From a virus (lineage: Duplodnaviria; Caudoviricetes): a stretch of DNA of 43,525 bases. The notes beneath the pieces are model-generated. The model searched no databases. It saw only the letters and a program-made list of their open reading frames with translations, and was not told the origin of the DNA. A program made the translations under genes and the position numbers. The stretch is from the IMG/VR virus record IMGVR_UViG_3300049782_000030, positions 1 to 43,525 of that record; one strand, written 5' to 3'. Shown here piece by piece: positions 834-4,331 of the stretch (position 1 is its first letter; the number at the start of each line of letters is the position of its first letter).

Positions 834-1018
834 CGCCCCGCCGCACGCACGGCCCCGACCGCACCGGGCCGCCCCAGGCCCCCGCCTCGCAGGGGGTCCA
901 GCTCCACCTGTTCGAGGACGTCTCGGACGCCACCCGACCCGCCCGCACGTACGCGCCGGTCCACGCGCCTCGCTACGGCCGGCCGGTCGTCGACGTCCCC
1001 GTCGGGAGGTACCTGTGA
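830..1018 (+). CDS. Hypothetical protein
   Basis: ATGA/GTGA translational coupling with neighbours; QLHLF motif. Confidence 0.6.
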   Translation: MTPRRTHGPDRTGPPQAPASQGVQLHLFEDVSDATRPARTYAPVHAPRYGRPVVDVPVGRYL

Positions 1019-2181
1019 CCGCCCACCGGACCGGTCCCGCCCCCAGCACCCCGGGGGGCGGGGCCCCGGTCCTGCGCCTTGGCTCCATGTGCTCCGGGTA
1101 CGAGGGGCTCGGCATGGCCATCGCGTCCATGCTCGACGTCGAGCTGACCTGGGTCGGCGACCCCGACCCCGGCGCCGCCGCCATCCTCGCCCACCACTGG
1201 CCGCACGTCCCCAACGTGGGCGACATCACCGCCGTGGACTGGGCGGCCGTCCCGCGCGTGGACGTGCTCGCCGCCGGGTTCCCCTGCCAGAGCGTGTCCA
1301 CCGCGGGCAAGCGCGCCGGCCTCGTCCCCGACGCCGCCTCAGGTCTGTGGGCACACGTCGCCGCCGCGATCGCCGTGCTCAGGCCGCCCCTTGTCGTGAT
1401 CGAGAACGTTGGAGGACTGCGCAGTGCCCGAGCCGGTGGCGACGTGGAACCCTGCCCGTGGTGTCTGGGAGACCCCGGAGAACAGCATCATCTGCGAGCA
1501 CTTGGTGCCGTTCTCGGAGACCTGGCCACGCTCGGGTTCGATGCGGAATGGGTCAGCCTCAACGCATCCGACGTGGGTGCCCCGCACCAGCGGGACCGGG
1601 TCTTCATCGTCGCCTGGCCTGCTGCCCACCCCCCGAACCTCCGACACCAACGGTGCCGGGCCGCACGGGGACGGCGGCATGGATCTGCGGACGGCGGTCT
1701 TGCTGCTGCCGACGCCCAGGGCGACGGATGGGACGAAGGGCGGCCCGAACCAGCGGGGATCGTCCGGGGATCTGATGCTGCCCTCGGCGGTGGTGCGACT
1801 GCTCCCGACGCCGACCGCGATGGACGCGCACGGGGCCCGCAACGCCACCGCGACCAGGAAGCCGGGCTCGAAGCACAACAGCGGGACGACGCTGACGGAC
1901 GCGTTCTGGACTGGGGAAAGTACGCCCCCGCCATCGACCGGTGGGCCCGCATCCTCGGCCGGCCAGCTCCAGCTCCCACTGAACCCGGGCTGAACGGCCA
2001 GCCGCGCCTGACCCCCGCCTTCGTCGAGTGGCTCATGGGCCTCCCCGACGGCCATGTCACCGCCGTCCCCGGCCTGTCCCGCAACCAGCAGCTCACCGCG
2101 CTCGGCAACGGCGTCGTCCCCCAGCAGGGCGCCGCCGCCCTCGCCGTGCTGCTCGACCGGATCGAGGAGGCCGCGGCATGA
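1015..2181 (+). CDS. DNA (cytosine-5)-methyltransferase
   Basis: Motif I SMCSGYEGLG, IV GFPCQ, VI ENV, VIII QRDRVF, IX/X FVEWLMGLP..LGNGVVP; GGGAGG RBS before GTG 1015. Confidence 0.93.
   Translation: MTAHRTGPAPSTPGGGAPVLRLGSMCSGYEGLGMAIASMLDVELTWVGDPDPGAAAILAHHWPHVPNVGDITAVDWAAVPRVDVLAAGFPCQSVSTAGKRAGLVPDAASGLWAHVAAAIAVLRPPLVVIENVGGLRSARAGGDVEPCPWCLGDPGEQHHLRALGAVLGDLATLGFDAEWVSLNASDVGAPHQRDRVFIVAWPAAHPPNLRHQRCRAARGRRHGSADGGLAAADAQGDGWDEGRPEPAGIVRGSDAALGGGATAPDADRDGRARGPQRHRDQEAGLEAQQRDDADGRVLDWGKYAPAIDRWARILGRPAPAPTEPGLNGQPRLTPAFVEWLMGLPDGHVTAVPGLSRNQQLTALGNGVVPQQGAAALAVLLDRIEEAAA
1424..1993 (+). CDS. Nested out-of-frame gene inside the methyltransferase (putative second subunit / target-recognition polypeptide)
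   Basis: GGAGGA RBS 1411-1416, 7 nt before GTG 1424; FSETWPRSGSMRNG and three LLPTP-containing repeats. Confidence 0.75.
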   Translation: MPEPVATWNPARGVWETPENSIICEHLVPFSETWPRSGSMRNGSASTHPTWVPRTSGTGSSSSPGLLPTPRTSDTNGAGPHGDGGMDLRTAVLLLPTPRATDGTKGGPNQRGSSGDLMLPSAVVRLLPTPTAMDAHGARNATATRKPGSKHNSGTTLTDAFWTGESTPPPSTGGPASSAGQLQLPLNPG

Positions 2182-3335: not shown

Positions 3336-4331
3336 GTGGAAGTGAGAATCGTCCGCGTTCCGGCACCCACGGGATTTACCCAGGTGCCGAATGTCGCCCT
3401 GCGCGACGAACGCCTGTCCTACAAGGCGCGCGGCATTCACGCGAACCTGCTGAGCAATTCCGATGAGGACTGGAACGAGACGGCGGAAACGCTCGCGCAG
3501 AAGAGCCCGGACGGCCGGGACGCCTGCCGGAGCGGGCTGCGGGAGCTGGCGAAGTACGGCTACATCGAGTACCGCAAGACGCAGATCGAGCGCGGCCGGT
3601 GGGCGACCGACATGATCGTCTACTCCGTCCCGAAGGACATCGTCGCAGGTCGCACCGAGGACGGAAAACCCGCTCTCGGTCCGACCAGGGGAAACACCGA
3701 GAACCCGCAGGTCGCACCGAAGACGGAAAACCCGTCCTCGGTGGGGGGTCACCGAGGCCGGAAAACCCGCTCTCGGTCCGACCTGCAGGAACAGGGCATC
3801 CCCGCAGGTGGCACCGAGAGCGGGAAACCCGCTTCCGGTCCGACCAGGGCAAACGACGTTTCCGCAGGTCGCACCGAAGACGGGTTTTCCGGCCCTATAC
3901 AGAACACCAGGATGCTTGCTGGAGAAGAACAACAAGCAGGCGATGCGCGCGCGAGCGCGAGCCAGGCCGAGCCCATCCCCGACTGGGCCCTCCCCCTCGT
4001 CCACCGCATCCACGCCGCCGGCCTCCCCGGCATCCGCTGGAACCTCCGCGGCGACGACTGGTACCTGCTCCATTCGCTCATGCAGCGAAAAGGCATCGAC
4101 GCCATGGCCGACTACGCCGCCCGCGTCGCCGCCTCATCCGCCAAGCCCGTCTTCTCCGCCCGCTATTTCATGTCCGGCTGGAAAGAACTCATCGACGCCC
4201 CGCCCGCCGGAAACGCTGCCCCCGCCCTCCGCGCCATTAACGGCGGCGCCGCACGCCCCCTCACCGGAACCGACGCCACCGTCGCCGGATGGCTCGCCCT
4301 CGGCAACCAACTCCACCAGGAAGACCAATGA
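3336..4331 (+). CDS. Phage replication initiator protein (winged-helix)
   Basis: FTQVPNVALRDERLSYKARGI..LLS..LRELAKYGYI N-terminus typical of phage Rep proteins; internal iterons. Confidence 0.88.
   Translation: MEVRIVRVPAPTGFTQVPNVALRDERLSYKARGIHANLLSNSDEDWNETAETLAQKSPDGRDACRSGLRELAKYGYIEYRKTQIERGRWATDMIVYSVPKDIVAGRTEDGKPALGPTRGNTENPQVAPKTENPSSVGGHRGRKTRSRSDLQEQGIPAGGTESGKPASGPTRANDVSAGRTEDGFSGPIQNTRMLAGEEQQAGDARASASQAEPIPDWALPLVHRIHAAGLPGIRWNLRGDDWYLLHSLMQRKGIDAMADYAARVAASSAKPVFSARYFMSGWKELIDAPPAGNAAPALRAINGGAARPLTGTDATVAGWLALGNQLHQEDQ
3644..3898. repeat. Five ~27-bp quasi-palindromic iterons (putative replication origin)
   Basis: ACCGA-n3-CGG(A/G)AAACCCG-n4-CGGT units starting 3654, 3716, 3751, 3813 and an inverted copy at 3873. 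Confidence 0.85.

Follow-up and report, generated by a model that had tools for sequence, protein, structure and literature searches.

A phage C5-cytosine methyltransferase gene conserved as protein in two reading frames, with a nested chain that likely supplies target recognition

The methyltransferase locus and its two reading frames

The window, that is, all of the DNA analysed here, comprises an entire virus record (43,525 bases), estimated to be complete and with a G+C content of 71%; it carries terminase, portal, major head and tape-measure genes. Its sequence is present in soil metagenomes, and no RNA dataset containing it was among those listed. Contigs of runs X1 and X3 are identical to positions 900-2300, with no mismatch or gap, both runs being possible sources of the window DNA. 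The best genome matches, at about 50% identity, come from Actinomadura, Nonomuraea and Streptomyces, and the host of this phage is presumably an actinomycete. None of the 16 and 30 ORFs scanned in the window was identified as a restriction enzyme, so the methylase looks like an orphan. Downstream of it are genes for a RusA-like resolvase and a replication initiator; by eye, the latter contains, at 3640-3890, repeated CGCACCGAG/CCGACC-type stretches resembling origin iterons. Another ORF (339-833) encodes two copies of a CxxC...HGWCxxC...W..AGRPDTGPP unit and has a weak PHROG match to HNH. Several palindromes are depleted in the window genome relative to the Markov expectation (CTAG 0.24, ATCGAT 0.13, AGGCCT 0.15, GAGCTC 0.19 and TTCGAA 0.24), which suggests restriction-site avoidance; this depletion indicates no methylase target.

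The main frame encodes, on the plus strand, a C5 cytosine methyltransferase of 388 amino acids (GTG1015-TGA2181, 1015-2181), hereafter the alpha chain, which matches Pfam PF00145 (E 1.5e-28). Its start codon overlaps the stop of the upstream ORF and is preceded by a likely ribosome-binding site, GGGAGG, at 1004-1009. All the catalytic motifs that the sequence-only reading had assigned to this frame are indeed there, in the order typical of C5-methyltransferases, i.e., motif I (1081-1107), IV with the PCQ signature (1276-1290), VI with ENV (1402-1410), VII (1516-1539), VIII (1576-1599), IX (2005-2046, beyond the stop of the nested frame) and X (2101-2121). The AlphaFold model of the alpha chain (mean pLDDT 81) adopts an M.HhaI-type fold (Z 26.7, rmsd 3.3, 246 of 327 residues aligned to M.HhaI) and is confident apart from a stretch of 93 amino acids between motifs VIII and IX (1621-1902). 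This stop-free filler, rich in Ala, Gly, Arg and Asp, is a shadow of the modules encoded in the other frame, and its pLDDT falls below 50 at model residues 197-257 and 260-274. The region between motifs VIII and IX is unconserved in the alignment and unfolded by prediction, and the modelled alpha chain appears to have no folded variable region of its own. The suspicion that the variable region is off-frame filler is borne out, and so is the drop in third-position GC content of the main frame, which amounts to 0.93 before the overlap, 0.67 within it and 0.95 after it; the corresponding value for the nested frame is 0.86.

The nested ORF, in the +1 frame on the same strand, runs from GTG1424 to TGA1993 (1424-1993) and encodes a chain of 189 amino acids, hereafter beta. 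It was correctly described from the letters alone as having its own GGAGGA ribosome-binding site, the FSETWPRSGSMRNG stretch (1511-1552) and three LLPTP-containing repeats. The likely ribosome-binding site (1411-1416, 7 nt before the GTG) lies within the codons that follow motif VI, and rare purine-rich codons are found at the same positions in homologues; TTG1409 and GTG1436 are further in-frame starts. The N-terminal piece of beta (N-piece; 1424-1618), with a WPxSG core, overprints alpha motifs VI-VIII and is followed by module 1 (1619-1702), module 2 (1703-1798) and module 3 (1799-1906). Contrary to the original proposal that motifs VII and VIII are encoded in both frames at once, these motifs exist in the main frame only and the +1 frame encodes a different conserved peptide there. 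The tail of beta (1907-1993; the last ~28 residues, 1907-1990) is an unconserved shadow of the alpha WGKYAPAI helix read up to the first stop, and it is probably not functional, given that its length varies from 42 to 291 nt among 42 loci with the same layout. No family match for beta was found in Pfam, NCBIfam or PADLOC, and an Atlas search returned only unnamed viral clusters at 0.96, with a recognition score of 1718, below the level of known families. The phrog_1008 profile, which matches beta with an E value of 2e-26, unites beta residues 2-146 with alpha residues 269-386, and PHROG 1008, 116 and 363, which comprise phage DNA methyltransferases, belong by profile to the same clade as the window gene.

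Gene layouts among relatives and selection on both frames

Relatives were collected as two sets of IMG/VR loci, with alpha and beta queries, each comprising the best 80 (of 115 and 141), which together with the window make 161 rows; after removal of 6 incomplete ones, the remainder reduced to 114 unique loci. The homologues are related to each other, so that the counts below do not represent independent events. The layout of the window, with all modules in the +1 frame and motifs IX-X in the main frame, is found in 42 of the 114 loci, whereas in 45 the early modules are in the +1 frame and the later ones in the main frame, and in nine the detected modules are solely in the main frame. In 12 loci with a split layout, motifs IX-X continue the +1 frame, a partition like that of M.AquI; the cultured phages TaylorSipht, Rebeuca, Catdawg and DrYang share this layout, and some of the split metagenome loci could be assembly slips. 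A tblastn match to the N-piece is absent in six loci, five of which, by eye, have a divergent N-piece in the +1 frame. The sixth, L008 (691-2391), is a natural single-chain member, the only one-chain form found, in which a homologue of the N-piece, seven modules and motifs IX-X follow motif VIII in frame and the +1 frame contains stops. None of the 114 loci has the C-terminal part in the third frame or beyond a main-frame stop.

A further, independent set, the best 80 of 542 genome loci, was found by scanning with the alpha alignment, using the motif IX pattern alone. The N-piece is in the +1 frame in all 80 of these loci and in 11 of 12 hand-picked annotated phage regions, the exception being a P1-like Dmt. 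The nested piece occurs in actinophages as well as in phages that infect Vibrio, Bacteroides, Paenibacillus, Streptococcus and Clostridium; for the six non-actinophage matches, the score of the real N-piece is reached by 0 or 1 of 200 controls. In phages Shelly and ZQ26, the +1 frames match the profile of the window's beta N-piece, and the nested chain ends with motif IX while motif X is in the main chain; in P0092, phiCDHM19 and S4-7, the nested chain stops soon after the N-piece. For two of these phages the inner gene is already annotated in GenBank, namely gp56 ('g55 internal gene') of Paenibacillus phage Shelly and P0092_45 of Streptococcus phage P0092. By comparison, the DotProduct record annotates the main frame alone, and in the TaylorSipht record the start of the second gene is placed downstream of the N-piece.

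One explanation of the nested frame, that it is a chance shadow, a relic or an assembly frameshift of a split gene, draws on the fact that in the window gene alone both frames would be open by chance with a probability of 0.5-0.6. Specifically, under synonymous recoding, the +1 frame is open given the main protein with P = 0.54 and the main frame is open over the filler given the nested protein with P = 0.61. The length of the open frames in the window was accordingly rejected as evidence, and the statistical case rests on the homologues. In these, the protein sequence of the nested frame is conserved. Among 63 aligned alpha chains (the window, 35 of 39 window-type loci and 27 of 53 others), the alpha codons under the WPxSG core of beta, in motif VII, are locked to GCC (57/57), CTC (50/50), GGG (57/58) and GAC (54/55), whereas at conserved Gly columns outside the overlap all four codons are in use, and the third codon positions there vary strongly, with an entropy of 1.3-1.5 bits. 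The locking is milder over the whole VI-VIII overlap, with a top-codon share of 0.69 vs 0.58. In each of the 80 genome loci, the +1 frame outscores all 20 of its controls made by synonymous recoding (median 81.6 bits, against 21.8 bits for the controls). Among 41 copies of module 2 in the +1 frame, identified with a beta-frame pattern, amino acid identity is 95% and third-position identity is 53%, compared with 50% amino acid identity in the alpha frame.

The start codon of beta is under selection as well, judging from its covariation among the homologues. The nested GTG is supplied by an AGT serine codon followed by G in 62 of the 105 loci in which motif VI was found (9 of the 114 are unscored), and AGT is rare elsewhere (23 of 665 single-coded Ser codons); where this GTG is missing, an ATG formed by AAT-G within ENV is commoner (19/43 vs 6/62, p = 6e-5). 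There is no +1 start 4-12 codons after ENV in 30 of the 105 loci, some of which have other starts. Together with the synonymous locking and the recoded controls, with the presence of the window layout in so many loci, and with the contigs that confirm the window sequence, these patterns leave the explanation by chance, relic or assembly error scarcely credible. Dual coding is close to certain on comparative grounds, and the homologues lend strong support to the original suggestion of a separately started nested chain.

The main frame is also preserved where it appears to encode nothing but filler. It is open in 96 of 96 nested loci, with no stop in 8,964 filler codons, against 31.6 open frames expected from recoded beta, whereas a similar shadow lying under main-frame modules contains 146 stops in 7,230 codons (2%). 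Of the 12 split loci, 9 have a main-frame stop at most 100 nt from motif VIII. The alpha-query loci were ranked by similarity to alpha, which biases them towards unbroken main frames; among 65 unique beta-query loci, no main frame is broken except in three split ones. It follows from the stop-free filler of the nested loci and the early stops of the split loci that alpha is likely made whole, being translated through the filler, when it carries motifs IX-X.

The sliding hand-over between frames

In the window, alpha resumes at a helix with the sequence DWGxYxxAI (1909-1935) that lies before motif IX and is conserved. In loci of the window type, the last module of beta ends where alpha restarts at WGxYxxAI. 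Where modules are present in the main frame (54 loci), beta terminates exactly 6 nt upstream of the first of them in 37 loci, and its stop codon is TAG or TAA in 35. Among relatives, the hand-over slides along the gene, and it can be located after the N-piece, in the middle of the module array, after the array, as in the window, after motif IX, which is the M.EcoHK31I layout, or after motif X. In a tree built quickly from the catalytic part of 105 rows, with 9 omitted, the layout changes 18 times, compared with a minimum of 3 and a mean of 41 for shuffled layouts; the 10 split loci included are scattered over the tree and require 10 changes, at least 5 of which are forced by well-supported branches.

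The precise placement of the hand-over could be taken to mean that ribosomes translating the nested frame shift by -1 at this point and produce a fusion of beta with motifs IX-X that pairs with the N-terminal part of alpha, similarly to M.AquI, in which case full-length alpha would be incidental. The 12 split loci and the four cultured phages with this layout do encode such a fusion in one frame. A canonical slippery heptamer near the hand-over is, however, absent in the window and is found in only 1 of the 35 scored window-type loci (7 of 42 are unscored) and in none of the 54 others. Moreover, such a shift has no need of the stop-free filler, which contrasts with the early main-frame stops in the split loci, and this scenario is improbable. 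Another possibility is a three-chain arrangement in which translation of the IX-X part begins anew through coupling at the hand-over. The beta stop overlaps a main-frame start in 8 of the 54 loci with main-frame modules, but no such overlap exists in the remaining 46; in the window, no main-frame start is present in the 20 codons before the helix, and a start near the hand-over is found in 5 of the 35 scored window-type loci (again with 7 of 42 unscored), so that a third chain is very improbable. Both mechanisms, canonical -1 frameshifting and coupling, are disfavoured by the counts of heptamers and start codons, respectively. Two separately started chains, with alpha continuous through the filler, are the reading that we prefer.

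A frame change of a different kind is seen in 20 of the 80 genome loci, from Streptomyces, Kitasatospora and Actinacidiphila (L197, L198, L209, L211, L213-L216, L218, L227, L229, L234, L235, L238, L239, L242, L247 and L251-L253), in which the main frame passes into +1 right after the catalytic PCQ, at locus position ~1698-1720. The change always occurs at CAA AGA C, both sides look conserved as protein, and the identity of the downstream codon positions is 0.98/0.97/0.71; the window is in frame at this site. This is a candidate for a programmed +1 frameshift at a rare Arg codon or, alternatively, an inherited inactive allele. In addition, the catalytic part contains insertions in four loci (L163, which is gp64 of phage DotProduct, with ~160 codons, L034, L046 and L049), and for phages Bibwit and Inspectinfecti the region that matches the methylase carries an annotated endonuclease. 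An out-of-frame HNH is tolerated as a loop in a phage methylase, according to the available portion of PMC11855218.

Modules, target recognition and relation to known methyltransferases

The modules share a common build, namely LPTPxAxD, a variable Gly-rich loop and a Leu-containing end of the Leu/Ala/Val type, with a length of ~30 amino acids (25-44 for most). By pattern, there are 1-8 modules per locus. In total, 488 modules form 25 clusters of three or more, and 18 of the 25 clusters occur in both frames. All three window modules belong to such clusters, i.e., module 1 to cluster 1 (38 copies among relatives, of which the main frame has 12 and the +1 frame 26), module 2 to cluster 0, the commonest (79 copies, 19 and 60), and module 3, the end of which abuts the resumption of alpha, to cluster 4 (26 copies, 7 and 19). 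A low-depth contig of runs X1, X3 and X4 joins window positions 1702-1793 to 1909 (115 skipped, 10 letters between, frame kept); it represents a soil relative in which module 2 stands directly before the WG helix, without module 3. The idea of an array that expands or contracts while the catalytic chain stays intact agrees with what is observed, namely 1-8 repeats per locus and a main frame that remains open in all nested loci. The confinement of the modules to the nested chain that it implied does not hold, because some or all of them are in the main frame in 54 of the 114 loci. The LPTPxA of the modules may resemble the TL motif of target-recognition domains (TRDs).

In the AlphaFold model of the single-chain L008, the N-piece and modules are mostly at pLDDT < 60, and the profile of alignment A4 matched solved structures in motif I only, with no match for the N-piece or the modules. 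A role of the modules in DNA recognition is suggested by where they are located, by their modular build and by their conservation. The structural results, along with the short, Gly/Pro-rich nature of the modules and 4 of the 80 genome loci in which no module was detected by pattern, fit a scheme in which beta is a genuine protein and partner whereas its modules act as structural spacers or have a ligand other than the target DNA, the enzyme having a single short or relaxed specificity. That alpha seems to have no folded variable region of its own speaks against this scheme, and so does the behaviour of the 25 module types, which reappear with little change and in 109 different orders across 110 loci, a pattern unlike that of spacers; on balance, the scheme is unlikely. 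Recognition of DNA by the modules remains the preferred view, and each of them may have its own target, a proposal in which our confidence is somewhat short of even.

In C5-methyltransferases, the variable region between motifs VIII and IX mediates target recognition (PMC3404938, available portion), and tandem TRDs in this region make C5-methyltransferases of Bacillus phages (SPR, phi3T, H2, rho11 type) multispecific, with a role in antirestriction (PMC8936443 and PMC12707154, in the parts available). As described there, the latter resemble the window gene in being orphan phage enzymes with a tandem array of variable units between VIII and IX, which in the window consists of the three modules (1619-1906). 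They differ in that their TRDs, with separate specificities shown, are in one polypeptide with the catalytic motifs, whereas the units of the window are in the +1 frame and, among relatives, the array is divided between the two frames. With respect to the two-frame organisation, the closest counterpart is M.EcoHK31I of E. coli (YGGCCR), a heterodimeric C5-methyltransferase whose beta subunit comes from a gene lying entirely within that of alpha and read in a different frame (PMC2836561); motif IX belongs to beta and the predicted TRD to alpha (PMC2836561 and PMC3404938; both statements as given in the portions available). Knockout of a single start in M.EcoHK31I was compensated by starts located further downstream (PMC2836561). 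This enzyme had been invoked as a precedent, and the gene layout fits, the beta gene of the window also being contained wholly within alpha in the other frame. The division of parts does not, given that in the window both IX and X are in alpha and beta carries a shuffled module array; on the same partial descriptions, it is phages Shelly and ZQ26 that share the reported layout, with IX nested and X in the main frame. The window gene is therefore best read as working like M.EcoHK31I, beside which it is set by layout, and, because motif IX is in alpha and not in beta, it is not counted as a member. M.AquI (CYCGRG) is a two-polypeptide C5-methyltransferase with motifs IX-X in the small chain, going by the available part of PMC3404938; the window differs in keeping IX-X in the first chain and in having a nested second gene, although the split relatives do have the M.AquI partition. 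No description of a nested module array or of a sliding hand-over was found in the literature covered, which took in main texts and only a minority of subscription papers. In the portions available, two papers on actinophage methylases (PMC9957025 and PMC11855218) do not mention 'frameshift', PMC11855218 mentions neither 'heterodimer' nor 'EcoHK31I', and PMC6070908, PMC2884959 and PMC11954522 contain nothing on the nested layout.

Taken together, the comparative data make it fairly probable that this gene, conserved as protein in two frames, gives rise to two separately started chains that form a single orphan phage C5-methyltransferase, with the nested chain likely supplying target recognition. 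Under the proposed mechanism, one mRNA would be translated into alpha, starting at 1015, and into beta, starting at the internal site 1424. Alpha would comprise motifs I-VIII, the unfolded filler that is the shadow of the other frame, and then the helix and motifs IX-X. Beta would provide the variable region that one-chain enzymes have between VIII and IX, in the form of the N-terminal piece and three modules, and might dock on the catalytic domain of alpha in place of the missing variable region, with the filler looped out. The alpha-beta pair would then methylate the phage DNA, presumably as protection against host restriction. A broader scenario, which merits less than even confidence, is that these genes represent a widespread phage clade of multispecific C5-methyltransferases built of ~30-residue LPTP cassettes, one target each, that are swapped among phages and between frames, and that the path of one enzyme is divided between two chains at a site free to move along the gene, from just after the N-piece to after motif X.

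Altogether, a large clade of phages appears to use, as a rule, a layout for which the literature covered gives experimental proof in a single enzyme, M.EcoHK31I. Annotation limited to the main frame misses the part that likely sets specificity, so that attempts to predict the targets of these genes, to clone them or to optimise their codons would fail. The sliding hand-over provides a natural series for studying the evolution of overlapping genes and split enzymes. The ~25 recurring cassettes, should each module be a recognition unit, would amount to a code for 5mC specificity that can be tested and to a compact set of antirestriction tools.
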